Below, one piece after another: positions 14,668-61,467 of a stretch of DNA of 64,000 bases. The number at the start of each line of letters is the position of its first letter. The first letter of the stretch is position 1. The DNA comes from an uncultured Candidatus Saccharibacteria bacterium. Its GTDB lineage: Bacteria > Patescibacteriota > Minisyncoccia > Phycocordibacterales > DATDWN01. Position numbers and translations under genes: made by a program. The stretch spans positions 5,508 to 69,507 of the forward strand of contig CAZQVT010000002.1 of NCBI GenBank assembly GCA_964596875.1. The letters run 5' to 3'. The notes beneath the pieces are model-generated. The model did not search any database. It saw nothing but the letters and a program-made list of their open reading frames with translations, and had not been told where the DNA came from.

Positions 14668-15678
14668 TTAATTATTTTGGTTATTAAATACTAAGTTAAA
14701 AATGTGCGAGTCAGACTGTAGTATTTTGTCGGTGCTTTCTACTGTAAGTGATATATTCGATGAGCCAACACTTCCTTCCCCAGGTCTAAAAGTTTGTGCC
14801 CACTGACTTTTCTCATTGTTTAGTGGTTTACCATTTATAGACCATGTATTTACCAAACTTTTATTTTTTAGTTCATCACCGTCAAAAAAGAAAGGCATTC
14901 CTATTACAGTTATCTCGTTTGTGTTATTTAACGCCAAACTACTACCTATTGCGTTTTGAAACTGTATTCCATAAGTTGGATCTTTTTTGTAAATGATAAT
15001 AGTCGGTTCTACTGGGTTTAGAACTATACTTCCAAAGGCTTGTCCATTGTCAGAGGTAACTTCTACACTTACTGTGACCGCTCTGGATATAAGTGAACCT
15101 TCGAAGGTAAAGGTATTTTTCCCATAACCTGATAATGTTTCAACTACTGAACTGTTTCTTTTCCATTTATATGTTAAATTTTTAGGGTTTATGTCTACTC
15201 CGTTTGCATTTTTAATATGAGGAAAAGCAATAACAGTTACTTTGTCCTGGTGAGCAAATAGTGACTTGCCCTTGTAAAAAGGTGGTACGAAACCGTGACT
15301 CTCCCACATAAGGTCTACGCTAGCTGGTTTTAGGTCTATATTTTTCTCAATAGTACCAGAGTCTGTGGTTTTTACTGTTATTCCAAGTGTGGTGATTTGG
15401 TCATCTCTTCCCATGGTAAAGTTGAACACCTTTTCACCTGTGCCACTTTTTATTGTTTTGCCATTTACTCTCCATGTAATACTCGCAACGTTTATATCGG
15501 TTGCATAACTAGTTAGGTAAACATAAACATTGTCCCCCGCTTTGGGGATCTCGGGCACCATTTGTATATTTACCACTTCACTTACTCCAAAATTTTGTGC
15601 GTGAACTTTTGTATAAAAACCAAAGATAGAAAAAACTAAAATAGTTATAAATGTTGGAATAAAAATAGAGCGTTTCAT
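14668..15678 (-). CDS. Secreted protein with three tandem beta-sandwich repeats of about 110 aa
   Basis: Signal peptide. Repeats are marked by ITWRVNGKTIKSGTGEKVFNFT, LTYKWKRNSSVVETLSGYGKNTFTFEG and WSINGKPLNNEKSQ. Confidence 0.55.
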   Translation of the reverse strand: MKRSIFIPTFITILVFSIFGFYTKVHAQNFGVSEVVNIQMVPEIPKAGDNVYVYLTSYATDINVASITWRVNGKTIKSGTGEKVFNFTMGRDDQITTLGITVKTTDSGTIEKNIDLKPASVDLMWESHGFVPPFYKGKSLFAHQDKVTVIAFPHIKNANGVDINPKNLTYKWKRNSSVVETLSGYGKNTFTFEGSLISRAVTVSVEVTSDNGQAFGSIVLNPVEPTIIIYKKDPTYGIQFQNAIGSSLALNNTNEITVIGMPFFFDGDELKNKSLVNTWSINGKPLNNEKSQWAQTFRPGEGSVGSSNISLTVESTDKILQSDSHIFNLVFNNQNN

Positions 15679-15731: not shown

Positions 15732-16223
15732 TTATGCTGCTTTCCCTAAATCATTATTGCTTATTCTTGTACTAGTTTTGCTTGCCTTCTGAGCAAACTT
15801 CAATACTTTTCCACCCATGTTTACTGCTTTATTTGCCACAGGAGCGAGTTTTGTTGCGACATTTACAACTTTTACTGCTGTGTTAACAAGGTTTAGGATG
15901 GTGTCACTTTTATAAATGATGTAATAGTAAATACCATCAAGTGTCCATAAGGGTAGTTCAGATATACCAGGCCACATTTCTAGACCAAAAGTTCCCAGTA
16001 ATCCAAAAAGCCTTTTAGGATTCCCCATACTCTGTCCTCGCATTTGTAAGTATAGTGCTAAACTCATAGCCACCCATAAATCTATAAGAAAGTTTATAAC
16101 AATACTTATGCCGGCGAACCAAACAAATATCCATTCTATAAAAATTTGAATCGCATCAACAATAAATAGTGCGGCAATAACAAGTCCCCACTCCAAGTTG
16201 CTGATTTTAGGTTTATCTTCCAT
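15732..16223 (-). CDS. Small polytopic membrane protein of the T4SS-like operon
   Basis: 163 aa with 3 predicted TM segments and a basic C-terminus. Confidence 0.5.
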   Translation of the reverse strand: MEDKPKISNLEWGLVIAALFIVDAIQIFIEWIFVWFAGISIVINFLIDLWVAMSLALYLQMRGQSMGNPKRLFGLLGTFGLEMWPGISELPLWTLDGIYYYIIYKSDTILNLVNTAVKVVNVATKLAPVANKAVNMGGKVLKFAQKASKTSTRISNNDLGKAA

Positions 16224-34497: not shown

Positions 34498-34682
34498 TGT
34501 TCCAATAAGATATCACATAATATAGCCATTTGCAAGTCCTAAAACACCCCCTTTTCACTACCCCAATTTGTACCCTAAAAAATATTTTGCGACCACATTT
34601 AGTGTCGTAAAATATTTTTAGGTTATGCGACAAGTAATCTTGTTGTATAACCTATATTGTGCGACATGGTATAATCTTAAAT

Positions 34683-35630
34683 ATGGCTTCGCTAAAACAA
34701 CTTAAACAGCAATTTTTAGAATATATTGAAATAGAAAGAGGCAGATCTTTAAAAACTGTTGAAAATTATGATCACTACATAGGTCGTTTTCTGGAGTTTA
34801 CTAAGAATGACAACCCTGGGAATATAACTGACCAGTCTGTAAGGGAGTTTAGACTGTGGTTGAACAGACAAACTACAGGAGATAAGAGAAAACCAAACGA
34901 AACTTTGTCTAAAAAAACTCAGAATTATTACCTTATTGCCCTAAGGGCGTTCCTAAAATACCTTGCTCGTCAGGAAGTAAAGTCATTGCCTGCAGAAAGG
35001 ATAGAGTTGGCCAAAGTCGGCGAAAGGTCACTAGATCTAATAACTGAAACTGAACTTGGAAGACTTTTAGACTCACCACAAGGTAGCGACATAAAAGATT
35101 TGCGTGACAGAGCAATACTAGAACTGCTTTTTTCAACTGGTCTGCGTGTTTCTGAACTTTGTGCACTTACGGCAGATATAGATCTAAACTCTGATGAACT
35201 TTCTGTTAGAGGAAAAGGAGGTAAGGTTAGAGTGGTTTTTCTATCTGATACAGCAAAAAAGGCAGTTAGGGACTATTTAACAAAGCGAAAAGACTTCAAC
35301 GAGGCACTTTTTGTTCAGTCTGGTGTAGAAGTTAGAAAAAAGAAGGAAGATAAAGACAAAAAAAATAAAAATACTCTTGAAACCGGTGCATTAACGAAAA
35401 GATCCATAGAGAGAATAGTAAAGCAACATGCTATAAAGGCGGGTATCTCAAAAAAAGTTACTCCCCACACCATTCGTCACCTATTTGCTACAGGGCTTCT
35501 TTCAAACGGAGCAGATATTCGTTCTGTACAGGCTATGCTGGGTCACTCTAGTATTATCACTACACAGATTTATACACACGTTACTGACAAACATTTACGC
35601 GATACCCACAAAAAATTTCATAAAAGATAG
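34683..35630 (+). CDS. Tyrosine recombinase XerC/XerD family
   Basis: C-terminal HTIRHLFATGLLSNGADIRSVQAMLGHSSIITTQIYTHV with the RHRY catalytic tetrad. The start is at MASLKQ. An extended -10 (TGgTATAAT) lies at about 34668. Confidence 0.88.
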   Translation: MASLKQLKQQFLEYIEIERGRSLKTVENYDHYIGRFLEFTKNDNPGNITDQSVREFRLWLNRQTTGDKRKPNETLSKKTQNYYLIALRAFLKYLARQEVKSLPAERIELAKVGERSLDLITETELGRLLDSPQGSDIKDLRDRAILELLFSTGLRVSELCALTADIDLNSDELSVRGKGGKVRVVFLSDTAKKAVRDYLTKRKDFNEALFVQSGVEVRKKKEDKDKKNKNTLETGALTKRSIERIVKQHAIKAGISKKVTPHTIRHLFATGLLSNGADIRSVQAMLGHSSIITTQIYTHVTDKHLRDTHKKFHKR

Positions 35631-39812: not shown

Positions 39813-39885
39813 CGGAGTGTAGTGTAACGGCTAACATTCCTGTTTTGGGAACAGGCGACTCCGGGTTCGAATCCCGGCACTCCGA
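39813..39885 (+). tRNA. tRNA-Pro (anticodon TGG)
   Basis: Folded by hand: CGGAGTG/CACTCCG acceptor stem, anticodon loop TTTGGGA, T-loop TTCGAAT. Confidence 0.85.
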
Positions 39886-39891
39886 CAATTT

Positions 39892-40311
39892 ATGGATGAA
39901 TATGTGAAAGAAGGCTTGTTTTATGTGGTTCAAAAAGCATTTATTAAAAATGGTAATGACATTTTGGTATTAAATGATCCGAAAGAAGGGCTAGATTATC
40001 CTGGTGGGAAAATTCAAAAAAATGAAGATAGTATAGTGGATGCCTTGAAAAGGGAGGTTTTAGAGGAAACTGGAATTAGTATAGACATAAAGAAACCATT
40101 TTTTACTGCAATAGATAAATACCCAGAAGACCATAAACACGCTGGAAAACTATTTTATATTGTGTTTTATGAATGTGAATTTGTTTCTGGGGAAGTAAGT
40201 TTGAGTTCGGAACACAACAATTTTTCTTGGGTAAACAAGGATAATTATAAAAAAGTTGATGATGGAACGTGGTATTTTGATGTATTAAAAAGCTATTTAT
40301 CTAATAAATAA
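39892..40311 (+). CDS. NUDIX hydrolase
   Basis: Nudix box GGKIQKNEDSIVDALKREVLEETGI. Confidence 0.85.
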   Translation: MDEYVKEGLFYVVQKAFIKNGNDILVLNDPKEGLDYPGGKIQKNEDSIVDALKREVLEETGISIDIKKPFFTAIDKYPEDHKHAGKLFYIVFYECEFVSGEVSLSSEHNNFSWVNKDNYKKVDDGTWYFDVLKSYLSNK

Positions 40312-40398
40312 CAATTATAAAAAATGATGCGCCGGTCCTCGTGCGAGGAACCAGCGCATGCCCCAGTAGGGGACTTCAGGTCGAATCGGTTGAACGGG

Positions 40399-40617
40399 TC
40401 ACTCGATGCTGTCGTTCGGGTCGGGGAGCTTGCCCCTGCCCCCACGACTCACCTTGCCGCCCTTCGAGCCAGCGATGCCCGCGGACTCGGAGTTCCACTC
40501 GTGGGCCGTGCCCTTTGCGTGGGCAGCCCTGCCACCCTTGCTTGCGATTTCTCGCTGACGCTCCGTGCTCATGGCAGCGAAGCCTCTTTTCTTCCCGTTC
40601 CGAACGTGATCCGTCAT
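40399..40617 (-). CDS. KGG-repeat general stress protein (YciG/GsiB-like). It is encoded on a 65% GC cassette of about 340 bp.
   Basis: RGFAAMSTERQREIASKGGRAAH...SESAGIAGSKGGKVS are KGG motifs. The cassette has its own GGAGGA SD and a GC-rich terminator followed by TTTTTT at 40324..40345. Confidence 0.65.
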   Translation of the reverse strand: MTDHVRNGKKRGFAAMSTERQREIASKGGRAAHAKGTAHEWNSESAGIAGSKGGKVSRGGRGKLPDPNDSIE

Positions 40618-40697
40618 GGGTCCTCCAGGGTTTTCTGGCCAAGTCAGACTATATCAGAATAATAGAAACAGTCTAGTTTTTGTGGTAGTGTTTTTGT

Positions 40698-41009
40698 ATG
40701 GTTTTTATAAAAAATAAAGAAAATTTTGTATGTGAAAAATGCGGCTTTGAGGTAGAAGGGGATGGTTTTACAAACCATTGTCCAGAGTGTTTGTGGTCAA
40801 AGCATGTAGATATTTCTCCTGGCGACAGACTAAATATCTGTGGGGGACTAATGGAACCAATACAAATACTGAAAAAGGGAAGAGAGTATTCTATTTTACA
40901 CAAATGTACAAAGTGTGGGTTTGAAAAACCTAATAAGGCAAGTATGAATGATAATTTCCAAATTATTGTCCAAGTTTCTGCATCTGGCCAATCTCATCGT
41001 CTAAAATAA
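40698..41009 (+). CDS. RNHCP-domain zinc-ribbon protein
   Basis: CEKCG...TNHCPECLWSKHVD...CTKCG. The last 8 codons and the stop codon lie inside the type-B repeat. Confidence 0.6.
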   Translation: MVFIKNKENFVCEKCGFEVEGDGFTNHCPECLWSKHVDISPGDRLNICGGLMEPIQILKKGREYSILHKCTKCGFEKPNKASMNDNFQIIVQVSASGQSHRLK

Positions 41010-41106: not shown

Positions 41107-42222
41107 TTAGTTTGATCTTAGCAACTCTTCGGTAATAAGTTTTGTTAGTTCTGGTGCAGTTGAGGTGGCAAAACTTTCCGCAAAGTTTTTATGGTTTAAA
41201 TCAAGAAATTGTCTCAGATTTATCTTTAGATCTCTTTGAACTTCTCTGTTTATATGTGAAACAGTAATGGCGTTTAGACCTCTGCTACTAGTCGTGTCCC
41301 CGTCAGAGCTGGTAGATATTATTCCTATGAGTGAAGTGTTGGAGTCTACTACTAAGCCTCCCGAAGATCCTTTCTGGGAAACTATGGTTCCTCCTACAGA
41401 GACTATGTCTATGGTTCCATTTTTGAAAGTAAAAACATCTTGAATTTGCGTAATACTACTTGCAACATTTAGATTTTGAATAATAGAAAGTCCACCTAGA
41501 AAACCAGCAGGGTAGGAGACTAGTAGTACTGGCTCACCAACAGCAATGTACTCTCTGGTATTTGGTGTTATATAGGTGTAACCATTTTTATTTTGTTCCC
41601 CATCTATTTCACCTGTAATACGAAGAAAGGCGAAATCGCTTTCACCAGTGCCTTTCGGGTCTTGATCTTTTAATAAAGTTTTATTTGCTTTTACCCAGTC
41701 TGGGGAAATGTAAACAAGTTCTATATTATATTTTGGATAAGCCGGACTGCCTGTTCTACCAACACATTTTAGATAATCTTTTTCTCTAAAATTTCTAAGT
41801 AGCATGTACTGGCCAATATGTGCATTTGTAAGTATTAGTCCATCACCATTTACAACAACACCCGTTCCTGAAATAGGCGAAAGTTCATTATATTTTGTGG
41901 TGCAAAAAATATTTACTATAGTTTTTCTGGATTCAGTGTTTATCTTTTCGAAATCCGGAGGAATGTAGGATGTGGTTGTCGCAATAATTTCTTTTGTTTC
42001 TTGAGGTTTAGAATCTTTCTGTATTTTTTTAGGGGTTGAAGTTGCTTTCGGTACAACTTTTATTTTTTCTGTTCCTGTGCTTGCGGCAGTTGTTTTTTGA
42101 GTAGTTGTGGCTTTGGGGCTGTCTTTCGGCGCGATGTATATTTCGGGTTTGGACGAATGAAAAAAACTAGTTATAGCGATAAGTGGAGTAAAAACTATTG
42201 TAGCGATAGCTTTTAGTAGCAT
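41107..42222 (-). CDS. Membrane-anchored trypsin-like (S1/HtrA-type) serine protease without a PDZ domain
   Basis: Catalytic triad context TNAHI...DFAFLRI...GSSGG. N-terminal TM and a Thr/Lys-rich linker. Confidence 0.8.
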   Translation of the reverse strand: MLLKAIATIVFTPLIAITSFFHSSKPEIYIAPKDSPKATTTQKTTAASTGTEKIKVVPKATSTPKKIQKDSKPQETKEIIATTTSYIPPDFEKINTESRKTIVNIFCTTKYNELSPISGTGVVVNGDGLILTNAHIGQYMLLRNFREKDYLKCVGRTGSPAYPKYNIELVYISPDWVKANKTLLKDQDPKGTGESDFAFLRITGEIDGEQNKNGYTYITPNTREYIAVGEPVLLVSYPAGFLGGLSIIQNLNVASSITQIQDVFTFKNGTIDIVSVGGTIVSQKGSSGGLVVDSNTSLIGIISTSSDGDTTSSRGLNAITVSHINREVQRDLKINLRQFLDLNHKNFAESFATSTAPELTKLITEELLRSN

Positions 42223-42301
42223 GGCATAATTATACCACTTAGAAATAACTTAAAAATTGCGAGGTGTTCGTTTTTCTGTTACCATAGTCTTGTTAAGTAT
42301 T

Positions 42302-42957: not shown

Positions 42958-44487
42958 TTATCTTGCAAATTCTATAGTGCGGTTCTCTCTGATTACAGTA
43001 ACTTTTATCTCTCCAGGGTATTTCAACTCAGATTCTATTCTTGTTGCAATATCTCTTGCCATTTTTTTCGCTTCTAGGTCAGTAACTTCTGCTGGTGTTA
43101 CAAAAACCCTTATCTCTCTACCTGCTTGTAGGGCATATGATTTTTCGACTCCCTTAAATGAAGTTGCTACTGCTTCCAAATCTTTCAGTCTTTTTAGATA
43201 GTTTTCTACACTGTCTCTTCTTGCACCTGGTCTTCCTCCAGAAATAGCGTCCGCAGACTGAACTATCATAGACTCTATAGTTTCATAAGGGTATTCCTCA
43301 TGATGCGCCTGCATTGCTTTTATAATATTTTCATCAGTACCAAACTTTTGTAGTATTCTTCTTCCTATTTCTACGTGAGTACCTACTACTTCATGGTCTA
43401 GTGCCTTTCCTATGTCATGAACCAGTGCCCCTGCTTTGGCTACCTGTACATTTGCACCGATTTCTTCTGCTAGCATTCCAGCAATATGTGCCATTTCAAC
43501 AGAGTGAGCCAAAACATTTTGACCATAACTTGTTCTAAAGTGTAGTCTTCCCAAAATAGAAACAACTTTTGGATCAAGTCCCAAAACGCCTGTTTCGTAT
43601 ACCGCTTCCTCCCCTTTTTCACGAATAATTTTGTTTATCTCGTCTTCAGCTGCTTTTACCATGTCCTCAATCTTTGCAGGCTGGATTCTTCCGTCAGCAA
43701 TAAGTTTTTCTAGGGCTACTTTGGCAATCTGTCTCCTAACAGGGTCAAAAGAGGAGATAGTGATAGAGCCTGGTGTGTCGTCTACGATAACCTCAACACC
43801 CGTGCATCTTTCAAATGCTTTTATGTTTCTACCTTCTTTTCCAATGATTTTTCCTTTTAGTTCATCGCTCGGAATACTTACGTTTGTTGTAAGCATGTCG
43901 GATGTAACAGAGTTTGAAAGTCTCTGTATAGAAGTTGCAAGTATTGCTTTCGCTTTTTCCTCTATTTTTTCACCTCCAGTAGTTTCAAGTTTACGCATTC
44001 TAACAAGAATATCTTCCTCAGACTCCTTCTCTACTCTTTTTAGAATTTCCTCCCTTGCTTCCTCTGGAGTAAGTCTGGCGATTTTCTGAAGTTCCTCTTT
44101 TTTCTGTTGCTCTATTTTTTCGGCGTTCTCACGGATCTGCTTTATTTCCTGTATTTTTAGCTTTACTTCTTCAACTTCTTTATCCAAATCTCCTTGACGT
44201 TTCAAAAGCAACTCATCTTTTTTGATAAGGCGTTCTTCGTTTTTTCTAGCATCTTCCTCTTTTTGTTTTATTTCAGAGCGTGCTTCTGTTACGATTTCTT
44301 CTGCTTTTCTTTCTGCTTCCTCTATTATTCTTTGCTCTCTGTCTTTGGCAACCAGCATCATTTGCTGGATGTCTAGTTCCATTGAGCCTTTTTTACTTTT
44401 CGCTACTAGGATACGCAAATAGTACCCTATAACTAGGGATACTAGAGACGCTCCTCCTAGGAGCAAGCCTATTTTTTCTAATGTCAT
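42958..44487 (-). CDS. rny: Ribonuclease Y
   Basis: N-terminal TM, coiled coil, KH domain (GKIIGKEGRNIKAFE) and HD domain (HSVEMAHIAG...HDIGKA). Confidence 0.9.
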   Translation of the reverse strand: MTLEKIGLLLGGASLVSLVIGYYLRILVAKSKKGSMELDIQQMMLVAKDREQRIIEEAERKAEEIVTEARSEIKQKEEDARKNEERLIKKDELLLKRQGDLDKEVEEVKLKIQEIKQIRENAEKIEQQKKEELQKIARLTPEEAREEILKRVEKESEEDILVRMRKLETTGGEKIEEKAKAILATSIQRLSNSVTSDMLTTNVSIPSDELKGKIIGKEGRNIKAFERCTGVEVIVDDTPGSITISSFDPVRRQIAKVALEKLIADGRIQPAKIEDMVKAAEDEINKIIREKGEEAVYETGVLGLDPKVVSILGRLHFRTSYGQNVLAHSVEMAHIAGMLAEEIGANVQVAKAGALVHDIGKALDHEVVGTHVEIGRRILQKFGTDENIIKAMQAHHEEYPYETIESMIVQSADAISGGRPGARRDSVENYLKRLKDLEAVATSFKGVEKSYALQAGREIRVFVTPAEVTDLEAKKMARDIATRIESELKYPGEIKVTVIRENRTIEFAR

Positions 44488-52495: not shown

Positions 52496-52620
52496 TTGTC
52501 TTGAGATTATTTGACAAAGTATATAAATGATGTATTGTTTGGTGTAGAAAGCTCCAGATGAGGCGAAGAACGTCTCCTTTCTAGAGAAGAGCTCTAGGAT
52601 GATCGGAGTTGAGGCTTATC

Positions 52621-53106
52621 ATGGTTGAAAGAATCGATGGGAAAGTGTCTGCGGGTGTGTGTTTTGCCGCAGCATTACTGCTCTCCCTTCTTACCTTCTT
52701 GATGTCTGAGAAGACAAGCACTGCCTTTTGTGCGTCGGCAGTGGTGTTCGCTGTCATGGGGTGGATTTCAGTCGCGTGTCTTTGTGACGACATTCGCCTT
52801 CAATGGCAGCGTGGCGAGAATGCCTGCAAAGAGAGAGAGGACAGAATCAATCTCGTAGTGTCCACATTCCTCACACAAGAGGCCGTGGATGCAAAGTTAC
52901 AACAACTGGCTACAAAAGCAGAGAACATGTTTCGTGACCAGGCCCAGTACCACGAGGGCAAGGAACGAAACATCGACGACGTCACTGCTCTGCTGATTGC
53001 TCGAGCCGTGGCAAATGCAAAGAGTGAATTCTGGTCGGCACACGAGTTGGCCAAGAGTCTCGGCTTCAAGGTCCGTCCCAAGATCAGAAGCTACACCAAG
53101 AAGTAG
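52621..53106 (+). CDS. Hypothetical 2-TM membrane protein encoded on a GC-rich (about 52%) insert between pilB and pilC
   Basis: ORF of 161 aa ending in a GC-rich palindromic terminator. Confidence 0.45.
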   Translation: MVERIDGKVSAGVCFAAALLLSLLTFLMSEKTSTAFCASAVVFAVMGWISVACLCDDIRLQWQRGENACKEREDRINLVVSTFLTQEAVDAKLQQLATKAENMFRDQAQYHEGKERNIDDVTALLIARAVANAKSEFWSAHELAKSLGFKVRPKIRSYTKK

Positions 53107-60927: not shown

Positions 60928-61467
60928 ATGAAGATCAGTGATGTCTCGAAACTCAGGGGACCGCTCGGAGAACTCATGAACCAGCTTCTCGGCCAGAACG
61001 GTGAGGAGCGACTTGCAGAACTCAACCTCTGGCTCAAGCGAGTCGGTGTTGGGATTCTCCTCACCATCGACCGAACTCTGACTGCCGAACAGGCAGTGGA
61101 GAAGACCGGTCGAGTCTGGTGGCACAAGAACCAGGTGGAGCTCGACAACGCTCCAATCTCTGGATCGTTTCAAGTCTCGCTGGAGATCTTCGAGCTCGAC
61201 TACGAGCCGACGCTGGTGGAACTCGACAGAGAGTACGCCTCTCGGGGTCTCAAGCCTGATCTCTCGGCTCTCTCACAGTACATATGCGAGAAGCCGGAAG
61301 CAGCAGACGACAGACCCATCGCTTGCCAGTGGGGTTTCAAGCCCGAAGGTACTGCAGCGTGCGCCGTCTTTAACCGGGGCACCTCGGAGCGCGGTGTGTT
61401 CGTGGACCGCTTCGGCACTCGCTGGGGTCGTCTGTATCGTTTCGCCGGCGTTCGTGAAGTCAAGTAA
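60928..61467 (+). CDS. Hypothetical 179-aa protein on a 58% GC cassette
   Basis: A GGAGGT SD lies 7 nt upstream. The codon usage is unlike the AT-rich neighbours. No recognisable domain. Confidence 0.5.
   Translation: MKISDVSKLRGPLGELMNQLLGQNGEERLAELNLWLKRVGVGILLTIDRTLTAEQAVEKTGRVWWHKNQVELDNAPISGSFQVSLEIFELDYEPTLVELDREYASRGLKPDLSALSQYICEKPEAADDRPIACQWGFKPEGTAACAVFNRGTSERGVFVDRFGTRWGRLYRFAGVREVK

Follow-up and report, generated by a model that had tools for sequence, protein, structure and literature searches.

A 315-bp island of GC-rich DNA interrupts the otherwise AT-rich contig CAZQVT010000002.1 (GenBank assembly GCA_964596875.1, deposited as an uncultured Candidatus Saccharibacteria bacterium), of which we analysed one stretch of 64,000 nucleotides, referred to here as the window. 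The island holds a single gene encoding a 72-residue KGG-repeat protein, which we call the KGG gene. Our reading, to which we give a probability of roughly 0.72, is that a clade of Paceibacteria acquired this hydrophilin-type stress gene anciently, has conserved it, and has partly ameliorated it. The family is a known one and so is the situation, that of an anciently transferred gene, partly ameliorated. The unit is laid out as follows, every element with a strand lying on the minus strand.

40648 to 40675, minus strand: promoter-like site from a consensus scan, with a -35 element TAGACT (40675-40670), a 16-nt spacer and a TG-extended -10 element TATAGT (40653-40648).
40618 to 40641, minus strand: 5' untranslated region (UTR) of about 24 nt, with the Shine-Dalgarno (SD) sequence GGAGGA at 40621-40626 and the ATG three bases on.
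40399 to 40617, minus strand: coding sequence of the 72-residue KGG-repeat protein, MTDHVRNGKKRGFAAMSTERQREIASKGGRAAHAKGTAHEWNSESAGIAGSKGGKVSRGGRGKLPDPNDSIE, which matches Pfam PF10685.
40319 to 40398, minus strand: 3' UTR and intrinsic terminator, with a small hairpin (40360-40372) and a main hairpin (40327-40359), followed by CA and six U residues (40319-40324).
40326 to 40640, no strand: the GC-rich island of 315 bp, which coincides with the predicted transcript from about its start site to the terminator stem.

The island is 64.4% GC, against 37.3% for the 64-kb window. Among all 300-bp windows (mean GC 0.373, standard deviation 0.048) the highest value, 0.65, belongs to the one starting at 40331 and lies 5.8 standard deviations over the mean. 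The edges are sharp: in 20-bp steps, GC goes from 0.10 (40301-40320) to 0.55-0.75 from 40321 onward and is back to 0.30 at 40641. The original prediction, made by a model from the letters of this DNA, had reported an abrupt jump, and that is what we see; its contrast with the host genome also stands, although its figure of about 35% GC for that genome does not, and the span it drew, 40324-40660, is 62.0% GC. At codon positions 1, 2 and 3 the KGG gene has a GC content of 0.58, 0.58 and 0.78, whereas third-position GC (GC3) in six host genes is 0.24-0.38. The 5' UTR is 62-65% GC and the 3' UTR 64%. With GC3 at 0.78 and both UTRs near 65% GC, the excess goes beyond what Gly, Ala and Arg codons would bring with them; the unit is atypical at synonymous and non-coding sites, which are free of protein constraint. 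Because the promoter sits in AT-rich DNA just outside the island, the GC-rich tract corresponds to the predicted transcript.

The protein's family is not in doubt. Its match to PF10685 (KGG, 'stress-induced bacterial acidophilic repeat') scores 40.3 bits against a cut-off of 20.4 (E 3.8e-10), and residues 12-33 cover the entire 22-position profile, in keeping with the YciG/GsiB-like KGG-repeat protein that had been predicted. There are two KGG motifs, SKGGRAAH (residues 27-29) and SKGGKVS (52-54), of which Pfam scores only the first. We found 7852 homologues, with a best identity of 80-84%; all the matches listed carry PF10685, and the window protein preserves 27 of the 27 invariant columns in a 59-sequence family alignment. 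It falls in a sub-family with the C-terminal tail ...VSRGGRGKLP, abundant on metagenome contigs of 60-70% GC, mostly from soil. The suggestion that such proteins are typical of high-GC Gram-positives did not hold up: the family is broad and includes members from Deinococcus, Acinetobacter, Nostoc and Methylomagnum. The PDB holds no relative of the protein, and an NCBIfam search returned nothing for it.

In its properties the protein is hydrophilic and basic (isoelectric point 10.4) and rich in Gly, Ala, Arg and Lys, with 16.7% Gly and a grand average of hydropathy (GRAVY) of -1.09. The thresholds for hydrophilins, attributed to Garay-Arroyo et al. (2000), are more than 6% Gly and a hydrophilicity index above 1. 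The window protein lies beyond both thresholds; its orthologues have 14.7-17.1% Gly and GRAVY values of -0.85 to -1.23, and some narrowly miss the second. An AlphaFold2 model built from 59 sequences has helices at residues 18-34 and 43-57, one per KGG motif, and no tertiary packing (mean predicted local distance difference test score 69, predicted template modelling score 0.34). By analogy with members of the family that have been characterised, the product is most likely a small, stress-induced, largely unstructured protectant of the hydrophilin type, which would serve in starvation, desiccation, osmotic or acid stress, and it is most likely made from an autonomous, SD-dependent transcript.

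The closest known parallels are YciG and YmdF of E. coli, PA2146 and PA2190 of P. aeruginosa and SEN1538 of Salmonella. YciG, YmdF, PA2146 and SEN1538 are described as RpoS-dependent proteins with roles in stress and biofilms (PMC9262955; PMC7161692). YciG/YmdF, PA2146/PA2190 and SEN1538 resemble the window protein in length (about 55-90 residues), in hydrophilicity and in carrying one or two KGG motifs within ...REIASKGG.A.H..., but the protein described here belongs to the ...VSRGGRGKLP sub-family, and its host is a Paceibacterium that is ultra-small, AT-rich and SD-less and is not known to have an RpoS regulon. There is a likeness, too, with Bacillus subtilis GsiB (a general stress protein under SigB) and the plant group 1 late embryogenesis abundant (LEA) hydrophilins (Em): all are built on repeats, rich in Gly and strongly hydrophilic, with little structure predicted, although GsiB has many tandem 20-mer repeats where the window protein has two KGG motifs. 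The gsiB gene also has a strong SD.

How old the acquisition may be was judged by looking for the gene elsewhere. A scan with RNase Y (42958-44487), taking one genome per species, returned 80 loci, the best of them 90% identical. All 80 belong to the Patescibacteria, the group that had been implied for the host, and are of the Paceibacteria/Parcubacteria type; their labels read Taylorbacteria, Zambryskibacteria, Paceibacterota or Minisyncoccia, and many of the third-party-annotation records among them bear the generic label 'Saccharibacteria'. With some 10 kb examined on each side, a KGG homologue was found in none of the 80 (L001, L002 and 78 others), which initially seemed to support a recent gain. 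A metagenome scan with the KGG protein, followed by inspection of the contigs of the closest relatives of the neighbouring trypsin-like protease (TRYP), overturned this. The best match of the scan, L085, is 80% identical and lies on a contig of 37% GC with the gene order TRYP, RNHCP, a divergent GC-rich KGG gene (67% GC), tRNA-Pro and UPF0102. In all, the KGG gene occupies the same place, divergent from the RNHCP-domain gene, in five other lineages: L085, L165/166/167, L168, L171/172 and L180. The six copies have a GC content of 0.59-0.67 and a GC3 of 0.61-0.78, in loci of 36-41% GC. Matches in low-GC Patescibacteria with similar local GC had been named beforehand as the outcome that would speak for an ancient gene, and these are the matches that came out.

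Distribution is patchy. Against the six lineages that have the gene stand L169/170 and L181, in which a GNAT gene abuts RNHCP and the KGG gene is absent, and the 80 species loci, which also lack it. Among the six orthologues, 29, 29 and 54 of 65 codon columns vary at positions 1, 2 and 3, which confirms both the minus-strand frame and purifying selection on it. Protein identity between lineages is 71-87% for KGG, within the range of its neighbours (TRYP 68-90%, RNHCP 71-93%, RNase Y 93-98%). Grouping the hosts by RNase Y and TRYP identity gives (L168,(WIN,(L165,L085))), where WIN is the window, and (L171,L169), with L001 and L002 outside both, which suggests that the lineages at this locus fall into two groups. 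The variant of terminator and C-terminus common to L168 and L171 fits an ancestral state and that of the window, L085 and L165 a derived one; since these variants fit the host tree, the unit would predate the split between the groups and would have been lost later in L169 and L181.

Sequence divergence leaves no room for a recent arrival. Between lineages, 50-63% of fourfold sites differ in host genes and 52-84% in KGG, where the ceiling is 0.669 at a host fourfold GC of 0.217; both are near saturation, which makes relative dating by synonymous divergence impossible. Beyond the five syntenic lineages with their saturated fourfold sites, the best foreign DNA identity is 73%. The signal of amelioration is also there. 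At third positions where one of the six orthologues deviates from the rest, seven changes run from GC to AT and one from AT to GC, and GC3 in the lineages takes values of 0.61, 0.64, 0.69, 0.69 and 0.78, the window being the highest. Stem-loops in the 5' UTR differ in sequence from one orthologue to the next and have the look of covariation, but none folds better than shuffled sequence (z -1.0 to +0.2). From the 7:1 ratio, the decay-like series and these non-significant stem-loops we conclude that amelioration is under way and incomplete, the window copy being the least ameliorated.

The elements that make the unit autonomous have been kept as well. Among five aligned orthologous loci the promoter block GACTGTTTCTATT.TTCTG.TATAGT is near-invariant, while the adjoining 5' UTR is highly variable. 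We infer from this pattern that the site, a sigma-70-like extended -10, is a functioning promoter, with a predicted transcription start near 40641; it overlaps the divergent promoter of RNHCP. The variable 5' UTR has a purine-rich, SD-like motif in every aligned unit (the weakest, AAAGGAA, is in L171), and in most orthologues this motif is GGAGG-like; because it persists there in most lineages the SD is probably used. Downstream, the main terminator hairpin has 14 pairs and one bulge, and the 101-nt fold comes to -31.8 kcal/mol (z -3.0). The hairpins of the different lineages are homologous: across five orthologues pairing holds in 92% of the hairpin cells, with compensatory T-A to C-G changes at two pairs. 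The GC-rich hairpin, the U run and the conserved pairing are those of an intrinsic terminator, L085 being without the U run. A GC-rich terminator followed by TTTTTT was part of the original prediction and is borne out. A simple consensus scanner for terminators missed it, probably because the U run starts at the limit of the scanner's tail window, and explicit RNA folding found the hairpin.

The foreign composition, an SD unlike host practice and the patchy distribution together make a horizontal origin plausible. On that point the original prediction fares well; what fails is its claim that the acquisition was recent, given orthologues in five lineages whose TRYP proteins are about 72-90% identical and whose fourfold sites are almost saturated. 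Outside the clade, contigs of 60-70% GC carry most of the nearest homologues. Of the high-GC homologues on long contigs the closest is that of L083 (67.5% GC), where the KGG gene lies two genes upstream of an Omp85/POTRA BamA whose named relatives come from Acidobacteria, Luteitalea and Vicinamibacterales; the BamA neighbour and these relatives mark the L083 organism as a diderm, Acidobacteriota-like, and no actinobacterium. Nothing points to the actinobacterial donor that had been proposed.

The course of events we favour is the following. The KGG gene would have entered the ancestor of a small Paceibacteria clade from a GC-rich soil bacterium, long before today's lineages split. Descent would then have been mostly vertical, with some homologous recombination among relatives and occasional loss, while purifying selection presumably preserved the protein sequence along with promoter, SD and terminator stem. 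The high GC content would have two sources, the amino-acid composition (GC1 and GC2 of 0.58) and the composition of the donor, which synonymous and UTR sites have so far only partly lost (GC3 of 0.61-0.78 across lineages, where the host has about 0.22-0.3). If this is right, a clade of ultra-small Paceibacteria has retained a borrowed stress gene, together with its own promoter, ribosome-binding site (RBS) and terminator, while its lineages diverged far enough to saturate their synonymous sites. When a metagenome-assembled genome (MAG) of the Patescibacteria shows a sharp GC island, this is by itself evidence neither of recency nor of chimerism.

Transfers into Patescibacteria have been surveyed. 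Most of those detectable are reported not to be recent (3.9-34.5% divergence) and to involve mainly other Patescibacteria (PMC12455944). The KGG gene is like these in being old and in having been exchanged among relatives. It is unlike them as a single gene of 315 bp with donor-like composition, autonomous from promoter to terminator and equipped with an SD, and it would escape methods that match donors to recipients.

Several observations pull the other way. The gene tree is not strictly vertical: L085 and L180 share 86% DNA identity in RNHCP and 88% in KGG against 74% in TRYP, and L165 and L168 share 91% in RNHCP against 76% in TRYP, a mosaic that indicates homologous recombination at RNHCP-KGG among related, co-occurring lineages. 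With the window gene at best 70-73% identical in DNA to any non-syntenic homologue, no donor can be named. The closest non-syntenic relatives, L081/L082 (84% identity), are on a contig of only 39% GC, whose proteins match no locus in our comparison set. Signs of mobility are missing, too: direct and inverted repeats around the island are AT-rich chance matches, and no integrase is adjacent. Function has been assigned wholly by homology. There is, finally, more GC than inertia should have left. We calculated a simple F81-type bound from the host's fourfold divergence, placing the gene's entry right at the deepest split and its fourfold GC at that moment at 0.85-1.0. It allows at most about 0.45-0.55 fourfold GC today; we see 0.72 (window), 0.61, 0.63, 0.58 and 0.47, and four of the five lineages hold more than pure inertia permits by this rough bound. 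The transcripts, taken whole, also form more stable folds than their dinucleotide shuffles do (z -2.3 to -6.3).

These last points are the core of a rival that we think unlikely and still worth setting out, namely that selection keeps the transcript GC-rich, for instance as a stable, structured, RNase-resistant messenger for stress or dormancy, and that amelioration has been resisted. Besides the folding and the fourfold excess, this would account for the island's edges, with an AT-rich promoter and GC running from about +1 to the terminator stem, and for the non-alignable 5' and 3' UTR spacers, which are still 44-62% GC in every lineage. The mRNA of B. subtilis gsiB is unusually stable and depends for this on a strong RBS, which we count on the same side. 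But the 7:1 excess of GC-to-AT singletons is what AT-biased mutation acting on about 70% GC3 should produce and bears no sign of equilibrium, and the spread of GC3 among lineages, from 0.61 to 0.78, looks like decay. Much of the folding signal comes from the terminator (coding sequences alone give z -0.1 to -2.9, mean about -1.6), the 5' stem-loops do no better than shuffles, and the F81-type bound can only be rough, given the constraint on the host's own fourfold sites and the recombination at this locus. The excess over the neutral bound is a small lead and no finding.

We hold it to be very unlikely that the gene is instead an ancient native of the Patescibacteria, GC-rich only through its Gly, Ala and Arg codons. 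Composition alone could give a GC1 and GC2 of 0.58, and other low-GC contigs (L081/82, L125 and L140) carry a fairly GC-rich KGG gene with its own SD and terminator; amino-acid content cannot, however, account for a GC3 as high as 0.78 or for UTRs at about 65% GC, an SD of this kind is alien to the host's genes, and the gene is absent at this locus from 80 related species and two close sister lineages. Recent acquisition from a high-GC donor, possibly the actinobacterial host of an epibiont, we regard as highly improbable. The sharp compositional contrast, the foreign-looking SD and terminator, and absence from the species representatives closest by RNase Y (L001 and L002) are in its favour. 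Against it stand the orthologous unit in five other lineages with saturated synonymous sites, non-syntenic identities that reach 70-73% in DNA and 80-84% in protein, and a nearest long high-GC context that is an Acidobacteriota-like diderm.

The two weakest explanations need little space. That a fragment from a GC-rich organism was misassembled into a Paceibacteria contig, as the original prediction also considered, has the composition jump alone to recommend it and is ruled out, because independent NCBI, ENA, JGI and Logan assemblies, from independent samples and pipelines, share the arrangement and its junctions, with host sequence on both sides of the 315-bp insert. In AT-rich genomes a GC-rich island often proves to be an RNA gene, and two plus-strand open reading frames (ORFs), 40324-40662 (112 codons) and 40341-40676 (111 codons), are longer than the KGG ORF, but a structured non-coding RNA or a plus-strand gene has practically no chance when Rfam gives no family at the gathering threshold (tRNAs only, in the window and seven related loci with GC islands), variation follows the minus-strand codon period of 29/29/54, the minus-strand ORF (the only one searched against Pfam) matches KGG, and the antisense open stretches range from 62 to 122 codons among orthologues.

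For an anciently acquired gene the translation signal is of some interest. Among window ORFs of at least 100 codons, 2 of 57 are preceded by a GGAG/GAGG core, where the background is 6%, which describes a host essentially without SD sequences; the original prediction was right to set the KGG gene's GGAGGA (40621-40626) apart. Widespread leaderless translation is suggested by TATAAT-like or -10 boxes that directly precede several host ATGs. One such box, a few bases before the ATG of TRYP, is ggTATAATtatgccATG (42223-42247, start at 42222). The ribosome is presumably still able to use SD pairing, since an SD-dependent gene persists in an SD-less and largely leaderless genome.

The gene's surroundings in the window run in the order CCA-adding enzyme, UPF0102, tRNA-Pro, NUDIX, KGG, RNHCP, TRYP, HU and RNase Y, and the immediate neighbours are these.

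40698 to 41009, plus strand: RNHCP-domain gene (Pfam PF12647, E 6.8e-28), divergent from KGG across a shared 80-bp intergenic region.
39892 to 40311, plus strand: NUDIX hydrolase gene (Pfam PF00293), convergent with KGG.
39813 to 39886, plus strand: tRNA-Pro(TGG), called by ARAGORN and Rfam.

The KGG unit had been placed downstream of the tRNA-Pro, and the tRNA is indeed on that side, but the NUDIX gene intervenes. At every orthologous locus RNHCP is conserved as the unit's left-hand anchor. The NUDIX flank varies: the gene is missing in L085 and L171, and in L165 and L168 a GNAT gene takes its place. In L085 and L171 the KGG terminator is immediately followed by the tRNA-Pro, which is oriented the other way, as an inverted match of 98.7% identity in L085 and by reading of the sequence in L171. 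The tRNA-side flank has been rearranged between lineages (window 39813-40311 against L085:1935-2127 and L171:7725-7924); a GNAT gene is found on this flank in L165, L168 and L169, and a short motif beside the terminator, ATTGTTATTTATT, is shared across the breakpoint.

A small foreign gene near a tRNA recalls tRNA-linked islands and integron cassettes, more so as other GC-rich minigenes occur in the same slot (L001 and L009), but here we found neither att- or attC-like repeats nor an integrase next to the gene, and every gene comes with a promoter and a terminator of its own. With neither repeats nor a cognate integrase, the unit does not qualify as a tRNA-targeted island or integron cassette. 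A tyrosine recombinase (Phage_integrase, with a SAM-like N domain) is encoded at 34659-35630 on the plus strand, at a distance of 5 kb; L168 and L169, the latter a genome without KGG, have it in synteny, and it is for that reason probably a housekeeping enzyme of the Xer type and no integrase of the island. Plasmid and phage collections searched with tblastn gave distant partial matches only (60-75% over about half of the KGG protein), and a scan of viral contigs gave no KGG match above 68%; nothing in these searches points to a mobile vector.

Genes of this size are easily overlooked. In L168 (GCA_013565735.1) the KGG gene is intact yet uncalled by the annotator, and its position, L168:7509-7706, is left as a 350-bp 'empty' gap in the public annotation; L180 (GCA_013565675.1) has the gene too. 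The exact 72-residue product of the window (40399-40617) is absent from the gene-position index, as are the window's RNHCP and TRYP products, although a TRYP protein identical to the window's is encoded on an NCBI contig of 78,351 bp. Since gene callers missed KGG genes of 65-72 codons in at least two assemblies, small GC-rich genes are probably under-counted in such MAGs.

Other small GC-rich genes turned up along the way. Directly after the NUDIX stop in L001 (15779-15993, ORF 15790-15927) is a GC-rich gene for a membrane-like peptide of 45 residues, with its own SD and hairpin terminator, and L009 (15159-15666, ORF 15331-15564) has an ORF of 77 codons and 61% GC in the same RNHCP-tRNA-Pro/UPF0102 slot; neither product matches Pfam. 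The slot seems to be a hot spot at which small foreign genes gather, a recurrence we take as a small lead and no finding. Just upstream of RNase Y, L004 (9503-9682), L014 (9411-9683) and L036 (9303-9686) carry small Cys-containing ORFs that are GC-rich (0.54-0.68) and have no Pfam match. Those of L004 and L014 look homologous by eye (MTK..C..CGQF ... AFARAG), a second GC-rich minigene common to AT-rich relatives.

Two broader ideas follow the same lines, and as a pair we rate them as unlikely. AT-rich, SD-less Paceibacteria may capture a class of small, self-contained, GC-rich, SD-bearing minigenes at a few recombination-prone slots, such as tRNA-Pro/RNHCP, taking them from neighbours and keeping them long. 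GC-rich transcripts may also be favoured by selection as long-lived dormancy mRNAs, their amelioration slowed and not merely incomplete.

Elsewhere in the window two ORFs follow the KGG unit as outliers in composition, and for the other GC-rich ORFs searched Pfam and PHROGs gave nothing significant. The third strongest outlier, at 52609-53106 (plus strand, 165 codons, GC 0.51, GC3 0.60), has a sub-threshold match to Rhomboid (17.3 bits against 22.6). The second strongest, at 60928-61467 (plus strand, 179 codons, GC 0.58, GC3 0.67), matches neither Pfam nor PHROGs, and by eye its C-terminal ...RGLKP...FAGVR(E/K) recurs in a minus-strand ORF of 210 codons and 60% GC at L045:3010-3642.

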